DNA of 64,000 nucleotides from a virus: IMG/VR virus record IMGVR_UViG_3300005066_000001; one strand, given 5' to 3'. The stretch's first letter is position 1; each line of letters begins with the position of its first letter. The notes under the pieces are model-generated. The model saw nothing but the letters and a program-made list of their open reading frames with translations. It was not told where the DNA came from and ran no database searches. The position numbers and the translations under genes were made by a program. Shown here piece after piece: positions 26,820-56,919 of this stretch.

Positions 26820-27407
26820 ATGATTTACGGAGTAGGGATAAATGATTACGAATATCCTGTTAAAATAAAAGGAAAACATATACCTGAATATTTAGTATGG
26901 AGAAGTATGATCTCCAGATGCTATAATACAAACTATCACAAAAGTAAAAACTATGAAAATCACACGGTGTGCGAAGAATGGTTAAGTTTTTCAAATTTTA
27001 AAAAGTGGATGGACACTAAAGATTGGGTAGGAAAACAGTTAGATAAAGATTTATTAATAGAAAATAATCTAATATATGGACCAGATACTTGCGTTTTTAT
27101 AAGCAGTGCACTTAATAAGTTTATTACAACAAAGCATAATTATCGGGGAGAATGCCCATTGGGCGTAACAAGGCAAAATGATGGTAATAATTTTGTAGCA
27201 ACAGTATCGGTTAATAGTAATAATGTATATCTTGGTAGTTTTAGAACCATGTACGAAGCACACTGTGCATGGAGAAATGAGAAAATGAAATTATTAAACG
27301 AATATATCAAAAACGAAAAGGATCCTGATGTGGTCAGAGGGTTAAATAGGGTGTATGAAAAACTCAAAATAGAAAAATTGAACAATCAAGAAACAAAGAG
27401 GTTATAA
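26820..27407 (+). CDS. AP2-domain homing-endonuclease-like protein lacking HNH catalytic residues (paralog 1 of 3)
   Basis: Shares YxxWxxMxxRCYN...VCEEWLSFSNFKKW...LDKDL and a C-terminal AP2-like YLGSF...EAHCAW with ORFs 39653-40216 and 41071-41763, and with the HNH-AP2 protein at 55933-56919. Confidence 0.5.
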   Translation: MIYGVGINDYEYPVKIKGKHIPEYLVWRSMISRCYNTNYHKSKNYENHTVCEEWLSFSNFKKWMDTKDWVGKQLDKDLLIENNLIYGPDTCVFISSALNKFITTKHNYRGECPLGVTRQNDGNNFVATVSVNSNNVYLGSFRTMYEAHCAWRNEKMKLLNEYIKNEKDPDVVRGLNRVYEKLKIEKLNNQETKRL

Positions 27408-27409
27408 CT

Positions 27410-28315
27410 ATGAAATTTAATGTCGAAGATTTGGTAGAACAAGGTCTTGTAAAGAAAAAGACCTATACTTCAGGAGAGTTTGCAGGACTTTCTATTCTTA
27501 AATATTCTAAGAAAGTCTTTTATAACAATCTATGGAATAGAGACAAACGACTGTTGGATTGTCGTGGTATGGTAGTTGATTCTGAAGATAACATTATTGT
27601 TTGGCCTTTTACAAAAGTTTTTAATCTTTATGAAAATAATACAAAAGTCTCACGAGATAAGATTGTAATTGCACCACGTAAAATTAATGGTTTTATGTGT
27701 GCTGTTTCTGTTTATAAAGGAGAGCCAATTTATTCAACAACTGGCTCATTGGATTCTAAATTTGCTAAAATGGCAAAAGAAGTTATTGAAAACCAAATGT
27801 TTAAAGATGAGCAATTTGAAGAAGGAAGGACGTATTTGTTTGAGATCTGTCATCCAGATGATCCGCACATTATAGAAGAAGAGTTCGGGGCGTATCTAAT
27901 CGGAGTAAGAAAACACAGCTCTGGTAAAATGATGTCAGAGTACACACTAAATGTTATTGCAGATGCTGATGGGTTTTATCGCCCAAGATTGACAGTAGGA
28001 AAATTCTCAGATATTTTAGAAGAATCTAAATCTTGCAAACATGAAGGTTTTATGATTATTGATCATGAAACTGGTAAAACACTGTGTAAATTGAAATCAA
28101 ATCATTACCTATCTAAGAAGGCAATTATGCGACTTGGACAAGCTAAAGTTGATGATATGTTTGATAATCCTGAGAAATTTAAACAACGAATTGATGAAGA
28201 ATTTTACGGGATTACAGATTTTATTGTAAAAACTGTTGACAAAGACCAATGGAAGTCTTATAATGATCAACAACGTAGGGCTTTTATTGAAAAATATTTT
28301 GGAGAACAGGAATGA
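27410..28315 (+). CDS. RNA ligase (Rnl family nucleotidyltransferase)
   Basis: Nucleotidyltransferase motif I KINGFM (the KxNG/KxHG variant seen in T4 Rnl2); 301 aa. Flanked by phosphoesterase and kinase genes. Confidence 0.5.
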   Translation: MKFNVEDLVEQGLVKKKTYTSGEFAGLSILKYSKKVFYNNLWNRDKRLLDCRGMVVDSEDNIIVWPFTKVFNLYENNTKVSRDKIVIAPRKINGFMCAVSVYKGEPIYSTTGSLDSKFAKMAKEVIENQMFKDEQFEEGRTYLFEICHPDDPHIIEEEFGAYLIGVRKHSSGKMMSEYTLNVIADADGFYRPRLTVGKFSDILEESKSCKHEGFMIIDHETGKTLCKLKSNHYLSKKAIMRLGQAKVDDMFDNPEKFKQRIDEEFYGITDFIVKTVDKDQWKSYNDQQRRAFIEKYFGEQE

Positions 28316-28707
28316 AAACGTGTATTCTGGTCAGAGGTGTGAGCGGTGCAGGAAAGTCAACATTTGTCCAAGAATGTTTTGGACGGTTTTGCAATCTTGA
28401 AGCAGATATGTACTTCATGAGAGACGGTAAATATTTGTTTGAACCTTCTAAATTAAAACAGGCTCATGGTTGGTGTCAATCTGAGACAGAAAGACAAATG
28501 AAGTTTGGTTATGATATTGTTGTTTCTAATACATTCACAACAGAGTGGGAAATGAAACCTTACCTTGACCTTGCTGAAAAATACGGATATACTGTTTTCA
28601 CAGTGATCGTCGAGAAAAGGCATGGAAATAAAGATGTTCACAATGTTCCAGAGGAAACACGACAGAAACAAGCTGAACGCCTTTATAAAAGTATCAAACT
28701 TATCTAA
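28312..28707 (+). CDS. polynucleotide 5'-kinase (P-loop)
   Basis: 131 aa with Walker A VRGVSGAGKSTF near the N-terminus. Size matches the Pnk kinase domain; translationally coupled (ATGA) to the RNA ligase gene. Confidence 0.55.
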   Translation: MKTCILVRGVSGAGKSTFVQECFGRFCNLEADMYFMRDGKYLFEPSKLKQAHGWCQSETERQMKFGYDIVVSNTFTTEWEMKPYLDLAEKYGYTVFTVIVEKRHGNKDVHNVPEETRQKQAERLYKSIKLI

Positions 28708-28716
28708 GAGGTAATT

Positions 28717-28947
28717 ATGAAAAGCAAAATCAAATGGTTGACAATGTTGGTATTTATTGGTATCATTATTGTTATCGCTACATTTGTGCCTAGTGTCAGC
28801 GCTACTGAGAGCAAGGCATACTCACGATATAAACTTGTTTCTGAGTCGGTTTCAGGGAAATATAAGACCTGTTTGTACCGCAATGTTAGAGGTGAGACAA
28901 AATCTACTTCGATTAGCAAAGGTAAGCGTTGTCCTAGTATTTATTGA
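28717..28947 (+). CDS. small secreted/membrane protein
   Basis: 76 aa with an N-terminal signal/TM sequence (LTMLVFIGIIIVIATFVPSVSA). Confidence 0.4.
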   Translation: MKSKIKWLTMLVFIGIIIVIATFVPSVSATESKAYSRYKLVSESVSGKYKTCLYRNVRGETKSTSISKGKRCPSIY

Positions 28948-28961
28948 TTTAAGGAGAAATT

Positions 28962-29189
28962 ATGGAAATTATAAATGTTTTGGAACAACTATATTTATTT
29001 GATATCTGGGTGTTTAGTCAGTGGTGGCTCTACGCACCGCTATTTATCCCAGCTATGTTTTATTTTGCATTCTTTGTTATTAAGTGGTCAGTATTGACAT
29101 GGCCTGTCTGGTATCCAATCATTACTATTATTAAAGCAATCAAAACTAAAATAGTTGTACATGTTAAAGAAGATAAGGAGAAAGAATGA
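28962..29189 (+). CDS. small membrane protein (two predicted TM helices)
   Basis: 75 aa, hydrophobic (LYAPLFIPAMFYFAFFVIKWSVLTWPVWYPIITII). Confidence 0.4.
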   Translation: MEIINVLEQLYLFDIWVFSQWWLYAPLFIPAMFYFAFFVIKWSVLTWPVWYPIITIIKAIKTKIVVHVKEDKEKE

Positions 29190-30280
29190 AACAAATTTAT
29201 AACACAATCTATGCACCTAACAAAGATAAATCAATCCAAGAATGGTCTGTATATGTTGATGGTAATATTGTTGCTGTAAAGTATGGAAAGTGGGGTGGAA
29301 AACTACAGACTAAGAAAACTGTATGCGAGTCTAAGAATGTAGGTAGGTCTAATGAAACGACACCAGAACAACAAGCCGTGCTTGAAGCTGAGTCTAAGTA
29401 TCGTGACCAGATTCGTAAAGGTTATGTTGAACGTGTAGAAGATGTTGAATTTAATGCAAATAAAAAATCTGTTATGTTGGCGGCTGACGCAAGCAAAAAG
29501 CCACACTTTGTTAAGTACCCTTGTCACATTCAACCCAAGCTAGACGGGAATAGAATGCTAGTTACTTTTGATGAAGATGGCGAACCTATTTTTAATAGTC
29601 GTGGAGCTAAAGTTTATCCTTCTCACAAACACCTTGCAGAACAACTAAAGTATCTGAGAGATAAGACTGGATTTGATAGTTTTGATGGTGAGTTGTATGT
29701 TCATGGAATGCCTTTGCAGAAAATTGTAAGTCTTGTCAAGAAAGTACAACCAGATAGTGCTAAACTTGAATATAGAATCTATGATATCCCTTCGGATAAA
29801 GTTTGGGAAGAACGAGTAAAAGATTTGACAAAGTTAGCTGGTTATCCTACACTTAGTATTCATACAGTACTTACAGAAGTTTGCTATGATGAACAACAAG
29901 CCAAGGTATCCATTAATAAGTACATGGAACAAGGCTACGAAGGGTTGATTATCAGAAATCTTGTTGGGAAATACGAGTTTGGACAACGAAGTAATGATCT
30001 TCTGAAATGGAAAGTATTCGAGAGTGATGAAGCATTTGTTTATGATGTAGAAATTGATAAAAATGAAGAAGGTGTACTTTTGTGTCGAATGAAGAATGGT
30101 ACAGAATTCCGTTGCAAAATGAAAGGTTCGCATGAAGAACGTCTTTACGAAGAGCAGTTGAAACTTATTGGAAAACATGTTACATTTACCTATCAAACGT
30201 TGACAGTTGATGGTGTACCGCAATTTCCTGTTGGTATTGCTGTTCGTGAACTTGATGAAAACTGGAATCCACAAGATTAA
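29186..30280 (+). CDS. ATP-dependent DNA ligase
   Basis: 364 aa; adenylation motif I QPKLDGNRM (KxDG) and the size of T7-type ligases. Confidence 0.6.
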   Translation: MKQIYNTIYAPNKDKSIQEWSVYVDGNIVAVKYGKWGGKLQTKKTVCESKNVGRSNETTPEQQAVLEAESKYRDQIRKGYVERVEDVEFNANKKSVMLAADASKKPHFVKYPCHIQPKLDGNRMLVTFDEDGEPIFNSRGAKVYPSHKHLAEQLKYLRDKTGFDSFDGELYVHGMPLQKIVSLVKKVQPDSAKLEYRIYDIPSDKVWEERVKDLTKLAGYPTLSIHTVLTEVCYDEQQAKVSINKYMEQGYEGLIIRNLVGKYEFGQRSNDLLKWKVFESDEAFVYDVEIDKNEEGVLLCRMKNGTEFRCKMKGSHEERLYEEQLKLIGKHVTFTYQTLTVDGVPQFPVGIAVRELDENWNPQD

Positions 30281-36133: not shown

Positions 36134-36571
36134 ATGAAATTGGAAATCGAACTTGTCCCAAAAACTGCGTGGTTTAATAATCTCCGCAGTTTCTTGACAA
36201 AAGAAGAATGGGATATTGTGCGGAAGAAGTGTTACAAAGAAGCAAACCACCGCTGCGAGATTTGCGGGAGTCAAGGAGATAATTGGCCTGTAGAGTGCCA
36301 CGAGATTTGGGAGTACACTAAAGCACGTAAAGTAAAACTTAAAGGGTTGATTGCACTGTGCCCCGATTGCCATGAAGTAAAACATATAGGGTTGGCACAA
36401 ATTCGTGGTAGATTCTACCCTGCATTAAATCACTTCATGAAAGTAAACAACGTATCAAAACAAGAGGCAATTAAATATGTTAACTCTTGTTTTTCTTTGT
36501 GGAATGAGAGAAACAAAGTTGATTGGAAATTAGATGTTTCATATTTAAAAGAGTACATGGAGAAGAATTGA
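36134..36571 (+). CDS. HNH nuclease
   Basis: CEICGSQGDNWPVECHEIWEY...CPDCHEVKHIG matches the C-x2-C...H...C-x2-C-H HNH zinc-finger nuclease signature. Confidence 0.55.
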   Translation: MKLEIELVPKTAWFNNLRSFLTKEEWDIVRKKCYKEANHRCEICGSQGDNWPVECHEIWEYTKARKVKLKGLIALCPDCHEVKHIGLAQIRGRFYPALNHFMKVNNVSKQEAIKYVNSCFSLWNERNKVDWKLDVSYLKEYMEKN

Positions 36572-37140
36572 GAAAACCAAGAAAGAAATCAGTAACAAAA
36601 AGAACAACGAGTAGGCGAAGAGTAATCTATAACTTTGTGTACGATAAAGACAAATGGATTAAAGGTTCAACTCAGATAAAGAAGCATCGTGAGATGCTTA
36701 TTGAAAATGCCTCTGAAAGCTCCTGTATGGCCTCTGGATTGCATTTCAGTAGTGAGGGGCTACAAGGGTACACCTTAGACCATTGTCACTCTACAGGGGT
36801 GATTAGGGGCGTTCTTAGAAGCGATATCAATATTTTTGCGGGACGTATTGAGAAATACTATAATAAGATTTTAGGTAAAACTGGATTATCTCTGATAGAA
36901 GTTCTTGAAGGACTATTAAATTACTTAAAATCATCAGAAGAAGATAGACAAACTGGAAATTATATGTTAGACTTCCGTATTGTTGATGCTGAACTAAAGC
37001 GAATAAGTCGGTGGAAGACAGAAACCATCCTCAATAAACTTAAAAATAAACTTGAACTTTTACCAGTAGAAGAGTATAATCGTCAACAAATAGTAGAAAT
37101 GTATATTAATCAGTTTGTCAAAGAGAAGGAGAATCAATGA
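36523..37140 (+). CDS. recombination endonuclease VII-like resolvase
   Basis: YTLDHCHSTGVIRGVLRSDINIFAGRIE matches the T4 endo VII motif LHLDHDH...VRGLLC. True start probably an internal ATG near 36694, because the tracked frame overlaps the previous gene. Confidence 0.55.
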   Translation: MEIRCFIFKRVHGEELRKPRKKSVTKRTTSRRRVIYNFVYDKDKWIKGSTQIKKHREMLIENASESSCMASGLHFSSEGLQGYTLDHCHSTGVIRGVLRSDINIFAGRIEKYYNKILGKTGLSLIEVLEGLLNYLKSSEEDRQTGNYMLDFRIVDAELKRISRWKTETILNKLKNKLELLPVEEYNRQQIVEMYINQFVKEKENQ

Positions 37141-38689: not shown

Positions 38690-39649
38690 ATGAATTTTAA
38701 ATATTACAACGAAATCATAGATAAAATTGTATCACTAAAGCAACAAGGTGTCGGTTCCCGTCAAATTGCAAAACAACTGAATATTGGCAAGTCAACAGTG
38801 AACCAGTATTATTCTGCTTGGCTTGAACAGAATAATATTATTAATGATGATGTTAAAGACGGACCAAAAGTATTGGTATTAGACATAGAGACAGCACCTA
38901 TCCTCGGGTATGTGTGGCGACTGTGGAAACAGAATGTAGGATTGAACCAAATAAACACAGATTGGTATTTAATGTCCTTTGCTGCAAAATGGCTGGGATC
39001 TTCCGAAGATGATATTATTTACATGGATTCCCGAAACAATAAGAGTCCAGAGGATGATTCAGAGATGCTTAAAAAGCTATGGGAGCTTCTTGACCAAGCA
39101 GATTGGGTTGTGCATCAAAATGGTCGCAAATTCGATATCCCCAAAATTCGAGCTCGTATGGTACTAAATAAGATGAAGCCATTCTCTCCTGTACGTCACA
39201 TTGATACATTAGAAATCGCAAAACGTTGTTTCGGATTTACAAGTAACAAACTTGAGTATATGACAGATAAACTATGTACAAAATATAAAAAACAAAAACA
39301 TAACAAGTTTGCTGGGTTTGAACTTTGGTCTGAGTGCATGAAAGGGAATGTTGAAGCTTGGGAGGAAATGGAAACATATAATAAGTTCGATATCTTAAGT
39401 CTTGAAGAACTTTACTTTGCCCTTGTTCCTTGGTATGATAAACTTCCAAACCCGAACTTGTACTCTGATTCGTTAAAAATTAAATGTATTTGTGGATCTG
39501 CAAGACTGAAAGAACATGGTTTTGCAACAACTGATGTATCAAAATTCCAACAATATATTTGTGAGGATTGTGGGAAACATTATCGTGGACGTAAAAATCT
39601 GTTGACAAAAGAGAAGAAAAGTACAATACTGACAAACGTAAGAGAGTAA
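38690..39649 (+). CDS. HTH domain fused to DEDD-type 3'-5' exonuclease (RNase H-like fold)
   Basis: N-terminal HTH (VGSRQIAKQLNIGKSTVNQYY); Exo I motif VLVLDIETAP; Exo II-like HQNGRKFDIP; C-terminal Cys cluster. Confidence 0.5.
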   Translation: MNFKYYNEIIDKIVSLKQQGVGSRQIAKQLNIGKSTVNQYYSAWLEQNNIINDDVKDGPKVLVLDIETAPILGYVWRLWKQNVGLNQINTDWYLMSFAAKWLGSSEDDIIYMDSRNNKSPEDDSEMLKKLWELLDQADWVVHQNGRKFDIPKIRARMVLNKMKPFSPVRHIDTLEIAKRCFGFTSNKLEYMTDKLCTKYKKQKHNKFAGFELWSECMKGNVEAWEEMETYNKFDILSLEELYFALVPWYDKLPNPNLYSDSLKIKCICGSARLKEHGFATTDVSKFQQYICEDCGKHYRGRKNLLTKEKKSTILTNVRE

Positions 39650-39652
39650 TAA

Positions 39653-40216
39653 ATGACAAAAATAAAGACTGTTTGTGGTTTTGGTATAAACGATGCAAAC
39701 TATGAAGTACAGACAATGTGTTATTCAGAAGGAAAAGTGGTTAGGGTACATACGTGCCCTTATTACTCTAGATGGTACGACATGATCCGGCGGTGTTATA
39801 ATAAAAGAGCATTAAGTAAAAGAAATAGTTATGAAAAAGTAACAGTATGTGAAGACTGGGCTGTGTTTTCAAAATTTAAAGATTGGATGAGTAAACAAGA
39901 TTGGGAAAATAAGGTATTGGATAAAGACTTACTTAGTGGTATCGAATACTCACCAACAACATGTCTGTTTATCCCCGAATCAGTAAACGTTTTTATTAAA
40001 GATAGAGTTAAAAACAAAGCAAATAAACGTGGAAGTTATTACCATAGTCGTGATAAAGTATATGAAAGCTATTGTTCAAACCCATTTACAAAAAGACTAG
40101 AATACCTTGGTAGGTTTAAAAATGAAGATGATGCTCATAATGCATGGAAAGTACGAAAACTAGAGTTATGTTTAGAGTTTCATGATCGAGGTATTATTTT
40201 AATAAGACTATCTTAG
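39653..40216 (+). CDS. AP2-domain homing-endonuclease-like protein lacking HNH motif (paralog 2 of 3)
   Basis: YSRWYDMIRRCYN...VCEDWAVFSKFKDW...LDKDLL...YLGRFKNEDDAHNAW; same architecture as 26820-27407. Confidence 0.5.
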   Translation: MTKIKTVCGFGINDANYEVQTMCYSEGKVVRVHTCPYYSRWYDMIRRCYNKRALSKRNSYEKVTVCEDWAVFSKFKDWMSKQDWENKVLDKDLLSGIEYSPTTCLFIPESVNVFIKDRVKNKANKRGSYYHSRDKVYESYCSNPFTKRLEYLGRFKNEDDAHNAWKVRKLELCLEFHDRGIILIRLS

Positions 40217-40450
40217 ATTTATTAGTAGATTATATTTATAAAGTAGTATAATTTTGGAGTAGATACAGCAGCAACTGAATATTCTGGTGTTCTTGGTTTT
40301 AGTTCTATACCTGCACAAGTAGTTATGTGGCATGAACCAGAGGATAATATTGGTAAGAGTTCAGTTAAAGAGTTTAAGACAATTCAACTTGCAATTGTAG
40401 AATAACTTAAGTATAATTATTTTAAGCCGCTTGATTATAATCGGTGGCTT

Positions 40451-41071
40451 TTGTTTTATAAAGGAGGAAATATGGAATATAAAGCAGGTGATATAGTGGT
40501 TGCTAGAAATATTCATAATGAAAATAAGGAATTTATTTTTGAGGTTGACAATATTGTTGTACAAGATGAGGTACAACTTCTTTATGGTAAAGATGTTTTC
40601 AGCGGAAAAAGTGTGTATGCTGTACATGGGCGGTATTGTAAGTTGTACAGTAGAAGTGTAAAAATTTCTGATGTAGAACGGCTATCAGAATTTACAAAAG
40701 AGGAACACCACAGAATGCCTCAAGGTTTGGATAGAGATTCACGCCACAAGTGGGCCAAGGAAACATTAAGTGCTGCTGAAAAACAGAATAAAGAACCGAT
40801 TGAATCAGATGGCAAATCATCCAGTTACTACGATCTACAACTTAGCCAGAAAACAATTGATTTTATTAAAGAAAATGGTTATGTCAAGACAGAAATGCTG
40901 ATTTATGATATTTTCGATAATGATTTTGATTTCTCTAATGCTTTTAAGTCTCTTGTTCGTGCATGGGGAACAGTGAATGGTGCAGGAAAGAAGGGTAATA
41001 GTCTTGACTACGAACTCAACAAAATTGATTACAGTGTAAATAAAATTCGTGAATACCGAGGTGAAGAATAA
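40451..41071 (+). CDS. hypothetical protein
   Basis: 206 aa; RBS AAAGGAGGAAATATG. Confidence 0.4.
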   Translation: MFYKGGNMEYKAGDIVVARNIHNENKEFIFEVDNIVVQDEVQLLYGKDVFSGKSVYAVHGRYCKLYSRSVKISDVERLSEFTKEEHHRMPQGLDRDSRHKWAKETLSAAEKQNKEPIESDGKSSSYYDLQLSQKTIDFIKENGYVKTEMLIYDIFDNDFDFSNAFKSLVRAWGTVNGAGKKGNSLDYELNKIDYSVNKIREYRGEE

Positions 41072-41763
41072 TGATAATGACAAGTTACCCTAAAAACATA
41101 ACTAAAATTAACTTAACCTATTGGTTTGAACACAACTTACCACTGTATAATAAAGATAATAGGGGTGGTGTTAGAAAACTAATACATGGTGTTGGTGTAA
41201 ATGATGCAAATTACTCTGTTGCGGTACGAATAAGGAAAGAGCATAATATGTGCCCTGTGTATTCTGAGTGGAAGAGTATGCTATCCAGAGCATATAGTCA
41301 CAACAGACATAAAGTGCAACCAACTTACGAAGATATTACTGTTTGTGATGAATGGTTGTCGTTTTCTAATTTTAGAGTGTGGTATATTGATAATTACAAA
41401 GAGGGTTATCAGCTAGATAAAGATCTATTGATTTTTGGTAATAAAAAGTATTCACCAGAAACATGTGTGTTTGTTCCACAATGGTTGAATTCATTCACAT
41501 TAGGAAGAGATAAATCTCGCGGTAAATATAAAATAGGTGTATATTGGAACAAGAGAGCTAATAAATTTCAAAGTGCATGTAGTAATCCAAAAACTAAAAA
41601 GAGAGATCACCTTGGTTACTTTAATGATGAAAACCAAGCACATCTTGCATGGATTATGAGAAAATTAGAACTAGCGTTAGAATTAAAACCAGAAATGGAT
41701 GAAATAGATAGCAGAATATACTACACTGTTATACGTATTATTAAAGAAAAAGGTGAAAATTAA
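41071..41763 (+). CDS. AP2-domain homing-endonuclease-like protein lacking HNH motif (paralog 3 of 3)
   Basis: YSEWKSMLSRAY...VCDEWLSFSNFRVW...LDKDLL...HLGYFNDENQAHLAW. Confidence 0.5.
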   Translation: MIMTSYPKNITKINLTYWFEHNLPLYNKDNRGGVRKLIHGVGVNDANYSVAVRIRKEHNMCPVYSEWKSMLSRAYSHNRHKVQPTYEDITVCDEWLSFSNFRVWYIDNYKEGYQLDKDLLIFGNKKYSPETCVFVPQWLNSFTLGRDKSRGKYKIGVYWNKRANKFQSACSNPKTKKRDHLGYFNDENQAHLAWIMRKLELALELKPEMDEIDSRIYYTVIRIIKEKGEN

Positions 41764-46522: not shown

Positions 46523-48781
46523 TTGATTAAAAGTGTAATCAAACGTAATGGTGAAGTTGTTGAGTTCGACCCAAACAAACTGAATAAGTGGGCTGAGTGG
46601 GCCAGTGAATCTAAAGTATCTTGGTCAGAAATTGTAATGAGTGCAACTAAGAAACTGTCCGATATGTGCTCTACCAAAGATATCCACAAGGCGCTTATTG
46701 ACACCTGTCTTGAAAAGGCAACATACCAACATGCAGATGTTGCAGCACGACTCCTTGTTGGGGATATCTATAAAGAAGTGTTTGGTGATTTTGTAGAACC
46801 ACCCTCTCTTTTTGAGTTCTATACAAAAATGGTAGAATCAGAAAAGTGGATTGACATGGAGTACGTTGAAGAAGAACTTGACGAAATTGATTCTTTTGTT
46901 ATCCACAATAAAGATTTCGGATACCAATACTCAAGCCTTCGTCAAATGTGTGATAAATACATGCTTAAAAACAAGCATACTGGACAACTGTTTGAATCAC
47001 CTCAGTTTATGTATGTGGGTATTGCTCTGGCGGCTATGCAGAATCAACCACAAGAGCGGAGAGTTGAAGATGTAATCAAACTGTACACCTATCTGTCAGA
47101 TTTGAAGATTAATGTTCCAACACCAACTCTTTCTGGTATGAGAACTAAGTTTAAAGGTTATGCAAGTTGCTGTTTGTTTACTACGCACGATACAGCAGAG
47201 AGTATTGAAGTAGGTAGCCACATTGCCTATATGATGACTTGCGCATCAGCAGGGATTGGTGGTTACATGCATACTCGTTCAGTAAAAGACCCTGTTCGTG
47301 GTGGCGACATTGTACACTATGGTAAACTACCTTACCTTCGGTACTACGAAAGTGCTGTCAAATCTACAAAGCAAGCAGTACGTGGCGGTAGTGCAACAAT
47401 GCACATTAATATTCTAGATCCTGAAATTGAAGATTTGATTCGTCTAAAACATCCAACTACACCGACACAAAAACAGATTCGTGGGTTGGATTATAGTAAC
47501 AGCATGAACAAACTGTTTATTCAGAAAGTTGCTAAGAACGAGCAGTGGATGTTAATTAGTCCATACTACGCTCAAGATTTGTATGATAAGTTTTATAGTT
47601 CAGATTATGAAGGTTTTGTTGAACTGTATGACAAATACGACAAATCAGATATTAAAGAAAAGAAGTATGTCAATGCTCGTGAATTGGCAATTGATATTCA
47701 AAAGAACTGGCGTGAATCTGGTCGAACATACAAGACATTTATTGACGAGATTAATCGACATACTCCATTTAAAGAGCCAATCTACAGCTCAAATTTATGC
47801 CAAGAAATCACGCTACCTACAAAAGGATTTAAGAGTATTGTAGATTTGTATGGAACAGATGGTGATGCAGGAGAAGTAGCATTGTGTTTTATTGGTGCAA
47901 TTGTAGCAGGACGTGTTACACAAGAAGAGTACGAAGATGTTGCTTATTATACAACCTTACTAATCGACAACACTATTGACTTGATGGAATACCCATTCCC
48001 CCAGATGGAAGTAACAGCAAAAGCTCGCAGAAGTATTGGTGTTGGTATTGTTAACCTAGCAAACTATCTTGCATCACAGAATGCAGGTTATACAAGCAAT
48101 AAAGGTAAACGTCTTATTCACGAACTAGCAGAAATGCACAGCTACTATATGCACAAAGCTTCTCTTCGTCTTGCAAAAGAAAAGGGTAATGCAGAATGGA
48201 TTGGTAAAACTAAATATCCTAAAGGTTGGTTGCCTATTGACACATACAATAAAAATGTAGATGATGTTGTTGATAGTTCGTTGGTATTTGACTGGGAACA
48301 GTTACGACAAGAAATTATTGAACAAGGCGGGTTGCGCAATAGTGTCCTTGAGGCACACATGCCCGGAGAAAGTAGTTCTCTAGCATCAAACACAACTAAC
48401 GGTCTTTATCCAATTCGTAGTGAACTGATTATTAAATCTTCGGATATAAACAAAATTCCAGTGTTTGTACCAGATTATGATAATTTGATTACTCGATACA
48501 GTTACGAGAAGTGTTGGGATGTCCCATTTAAGGACTTGGTAGACATGTATGCAATTGTTCAGAAGTTCTGTGGGCAAGCTATTAGTGCTGACTTTTATTT
48601 CGATACCTCTAAATATCAAGATGGTAAGATCGGTACGAAGGAAGACTTGACGAACTTGCTATATATGTGTAAGATGGGACTCAAGACTCATTATTACTGC
48701 AATACAAAATCCAAATCCGATGAAGTTGAGCAACTGACTTCGCAAGAATCTGGTTGTGCGTCAGGTGGTTGCAGTTTGTAA
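46523..48781 (+). CDS. nrdA: ribonucleotide reductase class I alpha subunit
   Basis: 752 aa; N-terminal ATP-cone (VIKRNGEVVEFDPNKL); C-terminal Cys pair (GCASGGCSL); nrdB downstream. TTG start after GGAGGAATAA. Confidence 0.7.
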   Translation: MIKSVIKRNGEVVEFDPNKLNKWAEWASESKVSWSEIVMSATKKLSDMCSTKDIHKALIDTCLEKATYQHADVAARLLVGDIYKEVFGDFVEPPSLFEFYTKMVESEKWIDMEYVEEELDEIDSFVIHNKDFGYQYSSLRQMCDKYMLKNKHTGQLFESPQFMYVGIALAAMQNQPQERRVEDVIKLYTYLSDLKINVPTPTLSGMRTKFKGYASCCLFTTHDTAESIEVGSHIAYMMTCASAGIGGYMHTRSVKDPVRGGDIVHYGKLPYLRYYESAVKSTKQAVRGGSATMHINILDPEIEDLIRLKHPTTPTQKQIRGLDYSNSMNKLFIQKVAKNEQWMLISPYYAQDLYDKFYSSDYEGFVELYDKYDKSDIKEKKYVNARELAIDIQKNWRESGRTYKTFIDEINRHTPFKEPIYSSNLCQEITLPTKGFKSIVDLYGTDGDAGEVALCFIGAIVAGRVTQEEYEDVAYYTTLLIDNTIDLMEYPFPQMEVTAKARRSIGVGIVNLANYLASQNAGYTSNKGKRLIHELAEMHSYYMHKASLRLAKEKGNAEWIGKTKYPKGWLPIDTYNKNVDDVVDSSLVFDWEQLRQEIIEQGGLRNSVLEAHMPGESSSLASNTTNGLYPIRSELIIKSSDINKIPVFVPDYDNLITRYSYEKCWDVPFKDLVDMYAIVQKFCGQAISADFYFDTSKYQDGKIGTKEDLTNLLYMCKMGLKTHYYCNTKSKSDEVEQLTSQESGCASGGCSL

Positions 48782-48892: not shown

Positions 48893-49753
48893 GTGGCTGA
48901 AAATAAGAAGAAACAACAAAAAGCTGAAGATTTTATAGGTGAGACGTTTAATAATGGCAGATTAAGGGTTGTAGGAATTGCAGGTAAGGATAAATGGGGA
49001 ATTTCATTATTTAAAGTAACTTGTACTGAATGTTCTAAAGATCCTGAACTGTTTCCAGATGGTTATTTTGTTAGTACAAAAAGTAACCTGAAGAATGGGC
49101 GGAAACCCTGCGGTTGTTCTAAGTACGAATGGGAAGATTGGCAATATCTGATTCTTGCTCGTAGAGCAGGAGAAGAGAAAGGATTTGTTGTTCATGGTTT
49201 TGCAGAAGAGTTTCATGGGGCATATACAAAACTAAACCTAGAATGTTTAAAAGACAGTTATAAGTGGACTGCAAGTATTGATAATGTAATCAATAACGGC
49301 AGATGTTGTCCTAAGTGTTCTGGAAATGCCAGACCAACAGAACAAGAAGCCCTGCAAAAATGTATTGATATCTGCAAAGAAATGGATTACGATGCTGTTG
49401 GCTTTGTTGGTGGATATAAAAATAACCGTTCTCATTTTGAATACAATTGTAAGATTCACGGAAAACAGGGTGTCAGCTATCACAATTTTGTAAACAATGG
49501 GACACGTTGTGGTGGTTGTTGGAAAGATAGGCAAGTTGAATTACTAAGAGATAACGGAAACGGCAACGGATACTATCCCGAAAGAAAAGATGAAATTGAT
49601 TTTCTTTATGTCTTAGACTTCAATGGTAAATTCATCAAAGTTGGAAGATCTTTTATTGTTGACGATAGGATTAAGAAGTTAAGGTCTTTATCTAAAATTA
49701 AAAAGATCTATAAATTGAGGACCTTTTACAGCAACACATCAAGAGATTTATGA
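48893..49753 (+). CDS. Zn-ribbon/GIY-YIG-like homing-endonuclease-like protein, copy 1 (C-terminus frameshifted)
   Basis: Paralog of 60545-61543 (same N-terminus MxENKKKQQKAEDFIG, CxxC repeats, YVLDFNGKFIKVGRS GIY-YIG-like segment). Relative to copy 2, one extra T in a T-run near 49726 shifts the last ~45 codons into another frame (continues to 49893). Confidence 0.5.
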   Translation: MAENKKKQQKAEDFIGETFNNGRLRVVGIAGKDKWGISLFKVTCTECSKDPELFPDGYFVSTKSNLKNGRKPCGCSKYEWEDWQYLILARRAGEEKGFVVHGFAEEFHGAYTKLNLECLKDSYKWTASIDNVINNGRCCPKCSGNARPTEQEALQKCIDICKEMDYDAVGFVGGYKNNRSHFEYNCKIHGKQGVSYHNFVNNGTRCGGCWKDRQVELLRDNGNGNGYYPERKDEIDFLYVLDFNGKFIKVGRSFIVDDRIKKLRSLSKIKKIYKLRTFYSNTSRDL

Positions 49754-49921: not shown

Positions 49922-51007
49922 ATGGCAGTTTTTAATTATGAAAATACTCAACGACACGAAGGGCACTACCCTCTATTCCTTGGGCAGCAACCAGCACTTC
50001 ACGATAGCATCAACACAACATACCCACAGATCTTTAAACTTTACAAGAAACTGAAGTCTGTTGACTGGAGTGAAGATGAGGTTGACCTTCAACAATCCCG
50101 CTTCGATTTCGAGAATTGCCCAAAGAATCAATACGAAGTAATGGTTAAAACTCTGGCCTATCAGTGGGAGCTTGATAGCATTGCTTCTCGTTCTATTGCA
50201 CCGCTTCTTGCACCATTTGTATCAAATAGTGAATATTGGGCAGCAGCTTCTTATGTATCGCAAAATGAAGTGCTTCACAGTTTAACATATTCCGAAATTG
50301 GTCGACAGTGTTTCAAGAATCCAGAAGTATTGTTTGCTGAAGTAGAGAGAAATGAAGTTACTGAACGTGGCTATGATTTTGGTATCGTGTTCAAAGAACT
50401 TGAACAACTTGGTGCTAAGTATAATCTTGGTCTTGTAGATAAAAATGACCCAATCGTCAAAGAAACTATTGCAAAAACATTAGTAGCCCTGTATGCTCTT
50501 GAAGGTATTAGTTTCATGGCATCGTTTGCTTGCACATTTGCACTAGCACAACAAGATTTGTTTATCGGTGTTGCCAAATTAGTTCAGAAAATTATGATCG
50601 ATGAACAATATCATACCCAACTTGATAAAATTGTTATTGAGACCCTACAAAACGACCCTGAATGGAAGCAAACATTTAAAGATATTAAACCTTGGACAAA
50701 AGAATATCTTGACAAGGTTGTACAGCGAGAGCTAAACTGGAACGAATACTTGTTCTCAGAAGGGCGTAGTATTCTGGGCTTGAACAAGCAACTATTGGAT
50801 GAGTGGGTTGTTTGGTCTGCAACCCCATTGTACAAAGTGTTGAATGTTCATAATGACAATGTAGTTCCCGAATCCCACCCAATTCCTTGGTTGAATGACT
50901 GGATTGACATTGACTCCCATCAAGTAGCAGCACAAGAAGCTACTATTGTCAATTATGTTTTGAATGCAACTAAAGATGACCTTGGGGATGATGAATTAGA
51001 GTTTTAA
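49922..51007 (+). CDS. nrdB: ribonucleotide reductase class I beta subunit
   Basis: 361 aa, directly follows the nrdA region; ferritin-like di-iron helices; acidic C-terminal tail (DDLGDDELEF) typical of R2. Confidence 0.6.
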   Translation: MAVFNYENTQRHEGHYPLFLGQQPALHDSINTTYPQIFKLYKKLKSVDWSEDEVDLQQSRFDFENCPKNQYEVMVKTLAYQWELDSIASRSIAPLLAPFVSNSEYWAAASYVSQNEVLHSLTYSEIGRQCFKNPEVLFAEVERNEVTERGYDFGIVFKELEQLGAKYNLGLVDKNDPIVKETIAKTLVALYALEGISFMASFACTFALAQQDLFIGVAKLVQKIMIDEQYHTQLDKIVIETLQNDPEWKQTFKDIKPWTKEYLDKVVQRELNWNEYLFSEGRSILGLNKQLLDEWVVWSATPLYKVLNVHNDNVVPESHPIPWLNDWIDIDSHQVAAQEATIVNYVLNATKDDLGDDELEF

Positions 51008-54294: not shown

Positions 54295-54296
54295 TT

Positions 54297-54566
54297 ATGA
54301 AAATAAATAAAGATAGCTACCAAATACTTAAGAAATATTCAGACGACATTATCTATGATGATAAATATGAAGCAACATTGAAGCAATGGTTAGATTCTTA
54401 TGGTGCAAATATTCGCTCTGAACTAGATGAAGATGGGAACTATTGTGACCTAATTACTTTTGGTTCTGCCTATGCTGTGTGGAAGATGATGGAGAGATTT
54501 AGGAAACAAGTTGTTCGTGAAACTCTGGGTTTGTTGGTAGAAGGACAAGAAAATGATGCACTATAG
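54297..54566 (+). CDS. hypothetical protein
   Basis: 89-aa ORF. Confidence 0.4.
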   Translation: MKINKDSYQILKKYSDDIIYDDKYEATLKQWLDSYGANIRSELDEDGNYCDLITFGSAYAVWKMMERFRKQVVRETLGLLVEGQENDAL

Positions 54567-54581
54567 CGGAGGTTTAAAAGT

Positions 54582-54962
54582 ATGTCTGTACCTCTAGATA
54601 AAATTGTGTCCAGCATGACAGATGCAGATTGGTTGCAAGTACATGTAATATCGCAAGTTAATCTCTTCGAGACAAAATTCAATACTCGAATTGATTCACA
54701 AGACATCGAAGATGTTTGCAAGATTGTTGCAGATATGAAACTTCCAGAAGGGTTGGATACATATATTGCAATGTTGTTTTTGTTACCGTCTATTCATAAT
54801 GATTATGTTTATGCAGATATTGCTAAACTAAAGATGCAAGGGTTGACATTAGGTTTAGATATGTTAACATACATGTATAGTCAATTTTGTATCACAGATG
54901 GTTATGATGAACAAGTAGCTTTTATTTTTAAGAATTGCATTCAGCATACAATTCCATTCTAA
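54582..54962 (+). CDS. hypothetical protein
   Basis: 126-aa ORF; RBS GGAGGTTTAAAAGTATG. Confidence 0.4.
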   Translation: MSVPLDKIVSSMTDADWLQVHVISQVNLFETKFNTRIDSQDIEDVCKIVADMKLPEGLDTYIAMLFLLPSIHNDYVYADIAKLKMQGLTLGLDMLTYMYSQFCITDGYDEQVAFIFKNCIQHTIPF

Positions 54963-55016
54963 AGAGTAGTGTTAAACACACAATTCCATTTTAATCAACA
55001 CCAAGGAGGTGTTATA

Positions 55017-55805
55017 GTGAGAGAAGATTATTGGTCTGACGCACACGAGCAAGATTCCAGTTTTCAACAACATAAAGAGGTGAATAAAAAGATGAAAGGA
55101 CGCAACAATACTCCTAACACTTTTAAAGCGAAAACAGATAGTAATAGGGACACAACACCTCTTCGTCCGATGAATGACCGTCAAGCAGAGTACATTGACG
55201 CTATTTACAACCATGCCGTGGTTATTGCCACTGGTGTTTGGGGGTCAAGTAAAACATACATCCCGTCTGTTATTGCTTGTGATATGTTGCTTGCCAAAAA
55301 GATTGACAAAATTGTAGTAGCTCGTCCCGCAGAAGGTAAGGCTAAATCTGTAGGGTTCTATAAAGGAACTAAGAACGAAAAACTCGAAGGTTGGGTGGCT
55401 CCAATTGCAGATGTATTTAAGAAGCGACTGGGTATCGGGCACTACGAAGCTTATGTTGAAAATGGGAAGATTGAACTACTCTCACTTGAACAAGTGAAGG
55501 GTCGTTCTTGGGACAACACCTTTGTAATTGTGGATGAAGCTGAAGATTTGGCCCCAGAGGTAGCTAAATCTCTTGTAGGACGGCAAGGTGTAAATTCTAT
55601 CACAGTGATCACTGGGGATATTGACCAAAAAGATCTTAAAAGTTATAGTGGACTAGAGCTGTTACTCGAAGTTTCAAAGTACGGTAACATTGATATGAGT
55701 ATTATTGATTTTGATAAATGGGAATACTGTGTACGTTCTCAAGAAGCAAAAGCTTGGGGTATGGCATTTGAGAAATATGAGCGCCGAAATGGTAGAGTAA
55801 AATAA
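55017..55805 (+). CDS. phoH: PhoH-like ATPase
   Basis: P-loop VVIATGVWGSSKTY and the DEAQN-like FVIVDEAEDL. Start taken as GTG at 55017, after CAAGGAGGTGTTATA, within the tracked frame 54969-55805. Confidence 0.55.
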   Translation: MREDYWSDAHEQDSSFQQHKEVNKKMKGRNNTPNTFKAKTDSNRDTTPLRPMNDRQAEYIDAIYNHAVVIATGVWGSSKTYIPSVIACDMLLAKKIDKIVVARPAEGKAKSVGFYKGTKNEKLEGWVAPIADVFKKRLGIGHYEAYVENGKIELLSLEQVKGRSWDNTFVIVDEAEDLAPEVAKSLVGRQGVNSITVITGDIDQKDLKSYSGLELLLEVSKYGNIDMSIIDFDKWEYCVRSQEAKAWGMAFEKYERRNGRVK

Positions 55806-55824
55806 AGTGTTTATATAAGATGAA

Positions 55825-55850
55825 GCGACCCAAGAGGTCGCTTTTATTTT
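55825..55850 (+). terminator. rho-independent terminator after phoH
   Basis: GCGACC-CAAGA-GGTCGC then TTTTATTTT. Confidence 0.55.
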
Positions 55851-55885
55851 GCTTCAATAGTAAGGAAGAATCTTACCCAAAATAC

Positions 55886-55914
55886 TTGACATTTTGTGCC
55901 AAAACTGATAAAAT
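55886..55914 (+). promoter_or_regulatory. sigma70-like promoter (TTGACA-17-TAAAAT)
   Basis: ttgaca / ttttgtgccaaaactga / taaaat, upstream of the HNH-AP2 gene. Confidence 0.5.
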
Positions 55915-55932
55915 ATTCTTTTGTAATCAAAA

Positions 55933-56919
55933 TTGGAGGCGAAGTTGGATAATTTTATTAACACAAAACACGGTAAACTGACTGTTATAGCAATAACAGA
56001 TAAAGTAGACAAGTATAACAGAAAAATATATGAATTACAATGTGATTGTGGCAACACAACATTTAAAACCAAAAATGAAGTAACAAACAAAAGAGGGCCA
56101 AGGTCTTGCGGATGTATCCCAAGAAAACGTAAGACAAAAGACATTAGTGGTGAGAGGTTTACAAAACTAATAGCAGTAATGCCGACTGGAGAAAAATCAA
56201 AAAATGGGGATGCCTTATGGTACTGTGAGTGTGATTGTGGCAAAAGTACGATAACAACCATAGGAAGACTGAACTTTGGGCATACAAAATCTTGTGGTTG
56301 TTTGAAGAATGAGGTAATACCTTTTAAAAGTAATTATCACGGAATGAAAAACACGCCTGAGTATAATTCTTGGAGAAAGATGAAAGAACGGTGCTATGAT
56401 ATAAACAACTCTGATTATAAAAATTATGGAGCTGTCGGTATTACAATGCCGGAGGAGTGGAAAGATAATTTCCTTAGATTTTATCAAGATGTAGGTAAAT
56501 GCCCATGTAAGGGTTATACGGTGGACAGAGTAGATTGCAACCTAAGTTACAGTAAGGAAAATTGTAGATGGGCCAGCCCGCACATTCAAGCAAGGAACAG
56601 GTTAAAAACAAAGACTTCTAAAACATCAAAGTATAAAGGGGTTAGCTATGATAAAGCAGCAGATAAGTGGTCAGCAAGATTTACCATCAGTTCCGGGGGA
56701 AATCTCTATGGAGGACGGATCTTTAGATATGAAACAGAGGAAGAGGCAGCATCTGCTTATGACCTAGCTACAATGTTGGTTTTTGAAGGATTTCCAACAA
56801 GTATTTATAATTTGAACAATTCTGGGTTTGATGTAGATGAAATTAACAAAGATATTTATTTCTTTAAAGTGCACCTCCCAAAACTAAAAGAGATTGCGAA
56901 TTTAGTGTATAAAGATTAA
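55933..56919 (+). CDS. HNH homing endonuclease with AP2 DNA-binding domain (free-standing)
   Basis: N-terminal repeated CDCG/CGC zinc-ribbon units; HNH-type core GYTVDRVDCNLSYSKENCRWAS; AP2 domain YKGVSYDKAADKWSARFT...YLGG-like. Confidence 0.65.
   Translation: MEAKLDNFINTKHGKLTVIAITDKVDKYNRKIYELQCDCGNTTFKTKNEVTNKRGPRSCGCIPRKRKTKDISGERFTKLIAVMPTGEKSKNGDALWYCECDCGKSTITTIGRLNFGHTKSCGCLKNEVIPFKSNYHGMKNTPEYNSWRKMKERCYDINNSDYKNYGAVGITMPEEWKDNFLRFYQDVGKCPCKGYTVDRVDCNLSYSKENCRWASPHIQARNRLKTKTSKTSKYKGVSYDKAADKWSARFTISSGGNLYGGRIFRYETEEEAASAYDLATMLVFEGFPTSIYNLNNSGFDVDEINKDIYFFKVHLPKLKEIANLVYKD

Follow-up and report, generated by a model that had tools for sequence, protein, structure and literature searches.

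Are four related genes scattered over one phage genome a working homing endonuclease accompanied by three broken copies, or something else? The question is raised by a stretch of viral DNA of 64,000 nucleotides (hereafter the window), in which a preliminary description had seen one intact HNH-AP2 protein, here called O4, and three shorter paralogs, O1-O3, that had lost the HNH catalytic block. The phage is one of Aeromonas and belongs to the genus Plateaulakevirus; 16 Plateaulakevirus records match the window at 80-90% identity (megablast). All four open reading frames are uninterrupted (Table 1), and tblastn with all four as queries found no fifth copy in the whole 64 kb. This distance holds seven or more genes that resemble homing-endonuclease genes (HEGs), and four architectures are represented among them. 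The genes around O1-O4 have unrelated functions in nucleotide or DNA metabolism, as had been described (the neighbours of O4 are phoH and an unknown gene), and no recognisable anti-defence locus was seen around any of the four.

Table 1. Positions in the window of the four genes, their parts and the associated features.
Feature	Position	Strand	Length	Remarks
O1	26820-27407	+	195 aa	Family A (IPA-HNH type); phrog_953, E 1.7e-77
O1, D75-K76-D77 ... N99 block	~27039-27122			
O1, AP2-like region	~27159-27299			
O2	39653-40216	+	187 aa	Family A; phrog_953, E 2.7e-67
O2, D90-K91-D92 ... N112 block	~39917-39994			
O3	41071-41763	+	230 aa	Family A
O3, predicted beta-beta-alpha block	41407-41499			Residues 113-143
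O3, D116-K117-D118	41416-41424			
O3, AP2 domain	41530-41676			Residues 154-202
O4	55933-56919	+	328 aa	Family B
O4, Cys-rich repeats	55954-56130 and 56140-56316			Pattern CxC/CxCxC ... CxC
O4, helical W..M..RC region	56338-56517			
O4, beta-beta-alpha block (predicted)	56518-56598			VDRVD...NCRW...Q..N
O4, AP2	56626-56784			
Canonical HNH_3 gene	13269-13931			Sole one of the genome; separate from O1-O4
CapR-domain T5orf172-type genes	48893-49753 and 60545-61543			Pfam T5orf172 match in one
HTH and RNase_H-like exonuclease gene tied to O2	38690-39649	+		Pfam RNase_H_2, HTH_7; diverged tract left of O2
3' remnant of the 2L372X locus gene	40253-40402	+	50 codons	Right junction of the O2 cassette
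phoH allele tied to O4	54969-55805	+		Diverged tract left of O4
Terminator-like hairpin	55822-55844	+		After phoH; consensus match only
Best sigma70-like site of the region	55886-55914	+		TTGACA, 17 nt spacer, TAAAAT, extended TG; consensus match only

Results

Three plus one

O1, O2 and O3 are 38-42% identical to one another (BLASTP, E 6e-29 to 2e-42), and O4 is 25-29% identical to them (E 3e-6 to 5e-3). Because O1-O3 match phrog_953 (E 1e-67 to 1e-83) and O4 matches phrog_374 (E 9e-78), the set is best described as three plus one, and we refer to the two groups as family A and family B. The proposal that all four ORFs form one homologous family is upheld, the link to O4 resting on the family profiles: in hhalign, families A and B align over their full length with a probability of 98.7% (E 3.5e-16), and the middle domain without AP2 does so with 99.0% (E 2.5e-18). 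The motifs quoted earlier also exist and align, namely W..M..RCY, VCEEW.SF.NF, LDKDLL against VDRVD, and the C-terminal YLG.F...A..AW. Genes of other phages come closer to O1-O3 (57% identity for one in PAc) than O1-O3 do to one another.

O1-O3 and the IPA-HNH family

ICP1-like Phage AP2-associated HNH (IPA-HNH) genes were described from gp59 and gp209 of the Vibrio phage ICP1, with gp59, gp114/115-116 and gp209 as the ICP1 members and with the HNH assignment resting on HHsearch; Plateaulakeviruses were highlighted in that study for T5orf172 genes, not for IPA-HNH (Barth, Dunham and Seed, 2023; PMC10448857). By sequence comparison, O1-O3 are members of this already described family. The family-A HMM matches gp59 at E 3.5e-34 and gp209 at E 1.2e-36, the two ICP1 proteins are 29-37% identical to O1-O3 (BLASTP; O1 against gp59, E 1.7e-19), and both carry LDKD...C..VP..N. 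A Pfam match is absent for O1-O3 and likewise for gp59, in agreement with the published description. A family-A tblastn search returned 1517 phage records, mostly from phages of Vibrio, Pseudomonas (KIL phages) and Rheinheimera, which are the hosts of taxa named in PMC10448857 (ICP1, Flaumdravirus and Barbavirus).

The block of O1-O3 reads L-D-K-D...Y-S-P..C...W-L-N and is predicted to fold as beta-beta-alpha. D116, K117, D118 and N140 (O3 numbering) are present in 121/121 family-A sequences, at overall identities of 45-60%. Since this motif is family-wide, invariant and common to gp59 and gp209, it is ancient and not the outcome of a local loss. What had been taken for a missing catalytic block in O1-O3 is a homologous variant of it.

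O4 as a member of a sister family

O4 is only marginally similar to gp59 (E 2.7e-6) and is thus treated as a sister family rather than as IPA-HNH; gp59 matches the family-B profile at E 6e-13. Judging by its sequence, O4 is built on the same core as O1-O3, with two additional N-terminal Cys-rich repeats that are putatively DNA-binding and weakly CapR-like. Repeat 1 aligns with the CapR domains of the window itself at 90.7% probability (hhalign, E 1e-6) and repeat 2 at 12%, while the Pfam CapR model gives no match to O4 and matches 1 of 84 relatives at 1e-3. The repeat signature CxCxC-x18-CxC has the spacing reported for the conserved cysteines of CasPRIB1. The hairpin after phoH and the sigma70-like site ahead of the gene make O4 look like a transcription unit of its own.

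AP2 domain and predicted fold

AP2 at the C-terminus of both families is confirmed by profile comparison and by the predicted fold. In Pfam, HNH is negative for all four proteins and AP2 (PF00847) matches O4 below the gathering score (28.2 bits, E 2.3e-6; cutoff 33.3); O1-O3 have no AP2 match at all, so that none of the four passes the threshold. However, relatives match Pfam AP2 at E<=0.01 (24/73 in family A, 21/84 in family B), the family-A profile matches WRI1 at E 8e-4, and hhalign to the AP2 of canonical proteins gives probabilities of 97.6-97.9%, which together argue for divergent AP2 members and not for non-members. Both AF2 models have a pLDDT of about 93 and show strand-strand-helix at the motif. 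The predicted beta-beta-alpha module lies between the helical region and AP2, which is itself modelled as a three-stranded sheet on one helix, like solved AP2 domains.

The HNH question

The Pfam HNH models (PF13392 and PF01844) gave no match to O1-O4 even at E values up to 1, nor to any of 157 family members (0/73 in family A, 0/84 in family B). Positive controls were detected, namely p17, p50 and p58 of the Xanthomonas phage Xp10 (about 1e-15) and ICP1 gp80, and PF13392 is found in 120/120 Xp10 p17 homologs. Residues 186-284 of O4 align with HNH_3-AP2 at 97.9% probability, with identical spacing between block and AP2 (hhalign). Once AP2 is left out, the probability of a relation to HNH_3 falls to 1% for family A and 23% for family B (E 9e-4). 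PHROG HNH families 99 and 4578 align across the O4 block; in O1-O3 only AP2 aligns with them, and no nuclease is recognised in these three proteins by sequence or fold. As far as profile alignments tell, the predicted beta-beta-alpha module of family B descends from the HNH_3 module, and that of family A does so by its homology to family B.

Where the general-base His would stand, family A (D-K-D ... N) has a Lys that never varies (K76, K91 and K117 in O1-O3, 121/121 sequences), and family B (D-R ... N ... Q..N) has Arg. When O4 is aligned with canonical HNH_3-AP2 proteins, R199 falls at the catalytic His and Q219 at the metal-binding Asn. These residues are well conserved in family B (R199 in 111/121, N210 in 107/121, Q219 in 106/121 and N222 in 104/121), and His occurs at the aligned position in 2/121 family-B and 0/121 family-A sequences. 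On these alignments the classic catalytic His is absent from all four proteins, and the picture of one intact and three broken copies does not hold: O4, which had been called an intact HNH, shares with 84 relatives the absence of a Pfam HNH match and differs from a canonical active site at both the His and the metal-Asn position. To our knowledge, a general-base His is used by every characterised beta-beta-alpha-Me nuclease, including I-HmuI, the colicins, Cas9 HNH and T4 endonuclease VII. We found in the literature no published biochemical demonstration of cleavage for these families.

Intactness and selection

O1-O3 keep every family-A invariant residue. O2 is devoid of the C-terminal ~25 residues of the family (C-terminal helices) and, judging from this, may be impaired. 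O3 and O4 each have a dN/dS of 0.11 and are under purifying selection. Taken in the sense of decay, the earlier view of O1-O3 as inactive is contradicted by the retained residues and by this ratio for O3.

Insertion sites and mosaic tracts

Related phages either do not have these genes or carry another member at the same spot, which is the behaviour of mobile inserts that had been suspected. Comparison with genomes about 85-90% identical in the DNA that can be aligned located the polymorphic spots. O1 has no counterpart in 2L372X, PAc and phiA047, and its right junction is exact at 27411. Against 2L372X, O3 stands out as a clean insertion of 689 bp; the member that occupies this site in 2L372D is only 47% identical, and the one at the O2 site in phiA047 only 40%. 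Further family-A copies occupy differing positions in PAc, phiA047, 2L372D and 4L372XY. O4 is not at its site in PAc or 2L372X, the two relatives compared here, and is missing from the top tblastn matches; the site holds a family-A gene (PAc_0152) in PAc and an unrelated ORF in 2L372X. ICP1 gp209 lies directly downstream of phoH, like O4 and PAc_0152. Sensitive Rfam scans, which recover the terL group I intron as a positive control, found no introns around O1-O4.

A strongly diverged tract lies upstream of each of O1, O2 and O4, the gene standing at its right edge. The phoH gene beside O4 has 33% amino acid identity to phoH of 2L372X and of PAc, whereas the genes flanking it have 86-91% to 2L372X and 86% and 69% to PAc. 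In contig L011, phoH is 97.7% identical and an O4 ortholog is also present. Among related phages the site downstream of phoH is found with family B, with family A or with neither, and each state goes with a different phoH allele. The exonuclease gene tied to O2 is 94% identical to that of phiA047 and 40% to that of PAc, and has only its first ~45-67 codons in common with a 418-aa gene of 2L372X. A remnant with 94% identity to residues 369-418 of that 2L372X protein (tblastn) follows O2, which forms the right edge of the replaced cassette. At the mosaic edges, amino acid identity rises from 40% or unrelated in the exonuclease to 94-97% in the next downstream gene, and from 64-75% in the phosphatase to 79-95% in the RNA ligase.

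Discussion

We favour, with a probability of roughly 0.58, the reading that O1-O3 (IPA-HNH) and O4 (sister family) are free-standing elements of the homing type, active now or until recently, whose active site is non-canonical. In a co-infected cell, the AP2 domain, aided in O4 by the Cys repeats, would recognise in an element-less genome a site within or beside the neighbouring gene, the modified beta-beta-alpha module would nick or cut it, and recombinational repair would copy into the recipient both the gene and the donor sequence next to it. The co-copied donor sequence is proposed to give rise to the mosaic tracts. Several observations run counter to this: almost all members are without the general-base His and the Pfam HNH count is 0/157; without AP2, family A is unlike HNH_3 (1%) and family B marginal (23%); AP2-plus-CapR proteins that are purely DNA-binding repressors do exist (CasPRs); and presence or absence and mosaic edges can also arise by ordinary recombination or through cuts made by other HEGs.

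It is possible, if doubtful, that all four proteins are instead nuclease-dead, sequence-specific DNA binders derived from HNH-AP2 HEGs, acting as repressors, silencers or site-protection factors, with their patchy distribution due to recombination or to other nucleases. The replacement of the catalytic His by Lys or Arg nearly throughout both families fits such a role, as do the absence of a recognisable nuclease in O1-O3, the promoter-like and terminator-like signals of O4, and its combination of AP2 with Cys-rich repeats of CasPR-like spacing, the first of them aligning with CapR. CasPRs, which combine CapR and AP2, have been shown experimentally to be anti-CRISPR DNA-binding repressors (bioRxiv 10.64898/2026.02.23.707548), and the canonical HNH_3 gene and the two CapR-domain T5orf172-type genes of this genome would be available to supply breaks. 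However, 3-7 copies per genome at variable intergenic sites in several unrelated lineages are the signature of self-mobile genes and not of regulators, and differing members swap at the same site. The D-K-D and Asn residues are invariant exactly at the metal and base positions of HNH, beyond what a scaffold needs. Moreover, CasPRIB1 homologs are few outside Bacillota according to the preprint, and O1-O4 are not set in a recognisable anti-defence locus. We consider about as tentative the idea that both modules are catalytically dead HNH relics, and that the proteins are sequence-specific DNA binders which keep spreading in the manner of homing elements without a nuclease of their own, perhaps by shielding their own allele from the cuts of other nucleases of the genome, by directing such cuts, or by silencing genes of the host or of competing phages as CasPRs and CapR do.

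The model of the preliminary description, a catalytically intact O4 beside block-less, inactive or domesticated O1-O3, is improbable. The O4 block (VDRVD...ENCRW) is indeed nearer to HNH_3 than that of O1-O3, as seen with PHROG 99 and 4578 and with hhalign, but it has Arg and Gln at the critical positions and no Pfam HNH match, and the one canonical HNH_3 gene of the genome is another ORF. The motif of O1-O3 is ancient and shared with gp59 and gp209, these genes resemble those of other phages more than each other, and purifying selection also speaks against the model. That the genes are decaying, pseudogenised HEG remnants without current function is very improbable: models of the HEG life cycle (PMC2248197) expect an element to degenerate once it is fixed, and O2 is C-terminally truncated relative to the family consensus, but the reading frames are uninterrupted, O1-O3 retain their invariant residues, dN/dS is low in O3 and O4, and the AF2 models are very confident.

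The closest known relatives of O1-O3 are the IPA-HNH genes of ICP1, which share the LDKD...Y.P..C...N block, the C-terminal AP2 and the lack of a Pfam HNH_3 match, and which are likewise free-standing, multi-copy and located beside replication or nucleotide-metabolism genes. They differ in host and lineage, and identity is only 29-37%. Canonical HNH_3(HNN)-AP2 free-standing genes form a class to which Magnani et al. (2004) drew attention. In Xp10 p17, p50 and p58, as in O1-O4, a nuclease-type block is followed by AP2 at a spacing of ~10-12 residues, and several copies of such genes lie scattered over phage genomes; however, the Xp10 proteins have D-H...N...N where O1-O4 have D-K-D or D-R, and they are without the extra helical region of ~60 residues (W..M..RC..VC.EW..F..F).

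O4 resembles CasPRs in joining Cys-rich CapR-like module(s) to AP2, a likeness judged by the reported Cys spacing of CasPRIB1 (QDA75636.1). Together with the PLE-encoded repressor CapR, CasPRs provide a precedent for HEG-derived DNA-binding modules that serve as pure repressors. CasPRIB1, however, is a 19 kDa protein from acr loci of Bacillota prophages, whereas O4 has 328 residues, follows phoH in an Aeromonas phage of lytic type, and contains the additional D-R beta-beta-alpha module. The T5orf172/CapR HEGs (ICP1 gp53 and the two genes of the window) are free-standing like O4 and have an N-terminal CapR weakly similar to its repeats; unlike O4, they carry a GIY-YIG-type T5orf172 effector and have neither a beta-beta-alpha block nor AP2.

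Genes of this kind are routinely labelled "HNH endonuclease", yet no HNH profile matches among the 240 family members listed. With the His nearly absent as well, nuclease activity should not be assumed. The window offers a compact natural experiment, with its several HEG-like genes and with the states of the phoH site tied to phoH alleles. If the proteins cut, they would represent a variant of beta-beta-alpha chemistry that works without the His; otherwise they would be mobile DNA binders of a very abundant kind, present in more than 1,500 phage records.

Four related genes in a Plateaulakevirus genome

The window (64 kb, G+C 35.6%) was matched by 16 Aeromonas phage records of the genus Plateaulakevirus, among them vB_AceP_PAc (PAc), phiA047, 2L372X, 2L372D and 4L372XY, at 80-90% nucleotide identity over 27-54% (megablast, 20-kb query). 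In addition, metagenomic contigs as long as 118 kb encode an identical copy of the protein of O3, one of the ORFs under study. The window is therefore a phage genome of the Plateaulakevirus group. All four ORFs of the preliminary description, here O1 to O4, were confirmed (table), and tblastn over the whole window found no fifth paralog.

The proposed four-member family was correct as to homology and incorrect as to composition, since three ORFs belong to one family (family A) and O4 to a sister family (family B). O1, O2 and O3 are 38-42% identical to one another (E 6e-29 to 2e-42), and O4 is 25-29% identical to them (E 3e-6 to 5e-3). Profiles from alignments of 73 O3 relatives (A2) and 84 O4 relatives (A3) matched each other with a probability of 98.7% (hhalign, E 3.5e-16), and of 99.0% (E 2.5e-18) when the AP2 region was left out. 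PHROGs assignments agree with the three-plus-one split: O1-O3 fall in phrog_953 and O4 in phrog_374, both labeled "HNH endonuclease". NCBIfam had no match for any of the four. Each of O1-O3 has nearer relatives among genes of other phages than among its paralogs, and on this ground recent intragenomic duplication was rejected as their origin.

Positions of the genes and RNA features discussed
Feature	Sequence	Position	Strand	Remarks
O1	window	26820-27407	+	family A
O2	window	39653-40216	+	family A
O3	window	41071-41763	+	family A
O4	window	55933-56919	+	family B
O3 insert	window	41074-41762		689 bp
Gene preceding O2	window	38690-39649	+	HTH start, RNase_H-like exonuclease body
Gene remnant	window	40253-40402	+	directly after O2, untranslated
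phoH	window	54969-55805	+	
Terminase ORF	window	11653-12786	-	Terminase_6N
Terminase ORF	window	14053-14421	-	Terminase_6N
Group I intron	window	12835-13079	-	RF00028, 61.5 bits, above gathering score
Second RF00028 match	window	13160-13397	-	45.7 bits
HNH_3 gene	window	13269-13931	-	canonical Pfam HNH_3, E 4e-11
tRNA gene	window	17148-17219	-	Rfam, 56.7 bits
tRNA gene	window	17326-17408	-	Rfam, 47.9 bits
ORF	window	36134-36571	+	no Pfam match
ORF	window	36523-37140	+	Pfam Endonuclease_7, E 1.4e-7
nrdA	window	46523-48781		
HEG-like gene	window	48893-49753	+	Pfam CapR, E 4e-47; ICP1 gp53-like; between nrdA and nrdB
nrdB	window	49922-51007		
HEG-like gene	window	60545-61543	+	Pfam CapR, E 4e-44; ICP1 gp53-like; also T5orf172
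Family-A gene	L003	4843-5472		none at this position in window
Family-A gene	L005	3495-4124		none at this position in window
Family-A gene	L005	9618-10325		none at this position in window
Family-A gene	L004	10143-10850		none at this position in window
Family-A gene	L001	8434-9105		none at this position in window
Family-A gene	L001	11561-12067		none at this position in window

Domain architecture and conservation

An AP2 domain in all four proteins was borne out by several approaches. Pfam AP2 matched 24/73 and 21/84 relatives of the two families; taken singly, O1-O3 had no Pfam AP2 match, and the only Pfam match among the four proteins was that of O4 to AP2, at a sub-threshold 28.2 bits (cut-off 33.3). 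The family-A profile matched the AP2 structure of WRI1 (E 8e-4). When both family profiles were searched against PDB sequences, that of family A returned AP2 alone, and that of family B a lipoprotein at chance level. AlphaFold models were confident (pLDDT 93.1 and 92.7), and the AP2 regions aligned at hhalign probabilities of 97.6-97.9% with those of canonical HNH_3-AP2 proteins (120 homologs of p17 from Xanthomonas phage Xp10).

O4 had been taken for an intact HNH endonuclease, which was not upheld. Pfam HNH models matched neither O4 nor its 84 relatives, in a scan that recovered Xp10 p17, p50 and p58 at about 1e-15 and PF13392 in 120/120 p17 homologs. Residues 186-284 of O4 do align with the HNH_3 block plus AP2 of the canonical proteins (hhalign), placing D198 at the Asp, R199 at the catalytic His, N210 at the structural Asn and Q219 at the metal-binding Asn. 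Arg occupies the catalytic-His position in 111 of 121 family-B sequences and His in only two. Compared without AP2, the O4 and HNH_3 blocks show a marginal resemblance (E 9e-4, probability 23%).

Nor have O1-O3 lost a catalytic block, as had been suggested; they carry a homologous, highly conserved variant of it. Profile-profile comparison makes their LDKDLL stretch homologous to the O4 block, VDRVD...ENCRW in O4 corresponding to LDKDLL...Y(S/G)P..C.F...(L/V)N.F in O1-O3. The block is predicted to form strand-strand-helix (residues 113-116, 133-136 and 137-143), and LDKDLL...N is the most conserved part of family A: D116, K117, D118 and N140 are identical in 121/121 sequences, most of which are 45-60% identical to O3 overall. 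On its own, the family-A middle domain did not resemble HNH_3 (probability 1%). The block is not a local degeneration, because gp59 and gp209 of Vibrio phage ICP1 have the same motif (family-A profile, E 3.5e-34 and 1.2e-36). These two proteins were the prototypes for defining "IPA-HNH" homing-endonuclease genes (HEGs), which combine an HNH-like region visible only to HHsearch and too divergent for Pfam HNH_3 with a C-terminal AP2, and in which Barbaviruses and Flaumdraviruses are rich (Barth, Dunham and Seed, 2023; PMC10448857). Family-A tblastn returned 1517 phage records, with Vibrio, Pseudomonas (KIL phages) and Rheinheimera foremost.

The N-terminus of O4 contains two Cys-rich repeats with signatures CxC-x19-CxC and CxCxC-x18-CxC. 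They did not match Pfam CapR and did not resemble ICP1 gp53 (about 1 bit). The sole support for a CapR relationship was the repeat 1 profile, which aligned with the genuine CapR domains encoded in the window (hhalign, 90.7%, E 1e-6); repeat 2 reached only 12%. The Cys spacing is identical to the one published for CasPR proteins, anti-CRISPR repressors, in their CapR domain (bioRxiv 10.64898/2026.02.23.707548). No Listeria record, sought as a link between O4 and CasPR, appeared in a spread sample of 60 of 984 phage hits. In protein P0202, O4-type repeats are joined to a canonical Pfam HNH/HNH_5 (E 1.6e-6) that replaces the D-R block and AP2, which indicates module shuffling among nuclease families.

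Every family-A invariant residue is present in O1-O3. Selection is purifying, with a dN/dS of 0.11 in each of two comparisons: O3 with an ortholog of 86% identity, likewise located just upstream of an NT5C gene, and O4 with an ortholog of 95% identity, used because dS against a 74% ortholog was saturated. O2 may be impaired because it stops about 25 residues before the C-terminal helices of the family.

Insertion sites and mosaic edges

Comparison with related phages, as the preliminary description had advised, located an empty O3 site. In 2L372X one base stands in place of the O3 insert, the sequence on either side remains alignable as far as the junction, and each end has a TAATG stop/start overlap. 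O3 is also missing from PAc, 4L372XY and phiA047, and 2L372D has a family-A gene exactly at its site that is only 47% identical, between flanking genes at 87-95%. O1 is missing from 2L372X, PAc and phiA047; the junction to its right falls exactly where the RNA-ligase gene starts (27411), and the one to its left is blurred within the 3' end of a metallophosphatase gene.

The O2 locus is a cassette replacement. 2L372X, 2L372D and 4L372XY have a metallophosphatase-like gene of 418 aa there, and phiA047 has a family-A gene, 40% identical, at the place of O2. Of the window gene preceding O2, no more than the initial ~45-67 codons have a counterpart in the 418-aa gene; about 45 codons kept from that gene encode an HTH and are joined to the RNase_H-like exonuclease body. 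The final 50 codons of the 418-aa gene persist as a dead remnant (94% aa identity). An intron origin for O2, prompted by a 234-bp gap 3' of it, was rejected because the gap is this remnant and sensitive Rfam scans were negative. Such scans found no introns around any of the four genes and did detect, as a control, the group I intron in terL, missed earlier when the entire window was scanned with Rfam at gathering threshold.

O4 lies between phoH and a gene of unknown function; in front of it are a hairpin resembling a terminator and the region's best match to a promoter. Its site holds a family-A gene in PAc (E 1.8e-83) and an unrelated 133-aa ORF in 2L372X; in ICP1, gp209 likewise directly follows phoH. 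phoH itself is hypervariable: any two of the three alleles compared (window, 2L372X, PAc) are only 32-34% identical. Nucleotide similarity to relatives ends about 50 nt into phoH and returns just past O4. The window-type phoH allele (97.7%) recurs on a metagenomic contig whose O4 ortholog is 74% identical in amino acid sequence.

The gene upstream of O1, O2 and O4 is far more diverged from relatives than surrounding genes. At O4, phoH has 33% amino acid identity, against mostly 86-91% for its flanking genes (86-91% vs 2L372X; 86% and, for the upstream gene, 69% vs PAc). At O2, the exonuclease is 40% identical or non-homologous and the next downstream gene 94-97%; at O1, the phosphatase is at 64-75% and the RNA ligase at 79-95%. 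This is the pattern named in the title of Barth et al. (PMC10448857), nuclease genes at boundaries of genetic exchange.

Extra family-A copies occur at differing positions in PAc, phiA047, 2L372D and 4L372XY. Relatives carry such genes also where the window lacks one, for example after DNA ligase or before the 5'-3' exonuclease, and these are variously annotated as hypothetical, HNH endonuclease or DNA-binding domain protein.

Other HEG-like genes and ORFs

Counting the two CapR-domain genes, HEG-like genes in the window number at least seven and represent four architectures. A group I intron divides the large terminase gene into two ORFs, and the HNH_3 gene in the interval between them resembles ICP1 gp80. 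Two further ORFs share a 49-nt overlap (36134-36571 and 36523-37140), and the 4L372XY counterpart of the first is annotated as HNH endonuclease.

Discussion

We favor, at a probability of roughly 0.6, that O1-O4 are free-standing homing-type elements. The AP2 domain, together with the Cys repeats in O4, would recognize a site in or near a conserved neighbor gene; the modified beta-beta-alpha module would nick or break element-less genomes in co-infection; and repair would then copy the element with adjoining donor sequence. The analysis establishes the family assignments, elements of the fold, conserved residues, site polymorphism, mosaic edges and purifying selection, from which target recognition, cutting and homing are inferred.

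Under the main rival, the module would have no catalytic activity left and the proteins would act as DNA binders. The general-base His is missing, we found no published cleavage assay, and CasPR provides a precedent for CapR plus AP2 repressors; next to these points stand the four residues invariant across family A. We regard this explanation as rather unlikely, while well ahead of the others. An intact HNH in O4 with the catalytic block lost from O1-O3 is very improbable given the Arg in O4 and the conserved variant block in O1-O3. Simple decay of the genes is hardly credible beside dN/dS values of 0.11.

Phage HNH-AP2 endonuclease genes had already been described (PMC2248197 and older literature that it and PMC10448857 cite), and genes of the O1-O4 kind are already known, IPA-HNH having been named in 2023. 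The window contributes new members, from a lineage for which PMC10448857 stressed T5orf172 genes. It also adds a residue-level point, replacement of the catalytic His in both families, by Lys in A and by Arg in B. Finally, it illustrates clearly how a single phoH-linked site can be occupied by a member of either family or be empty.
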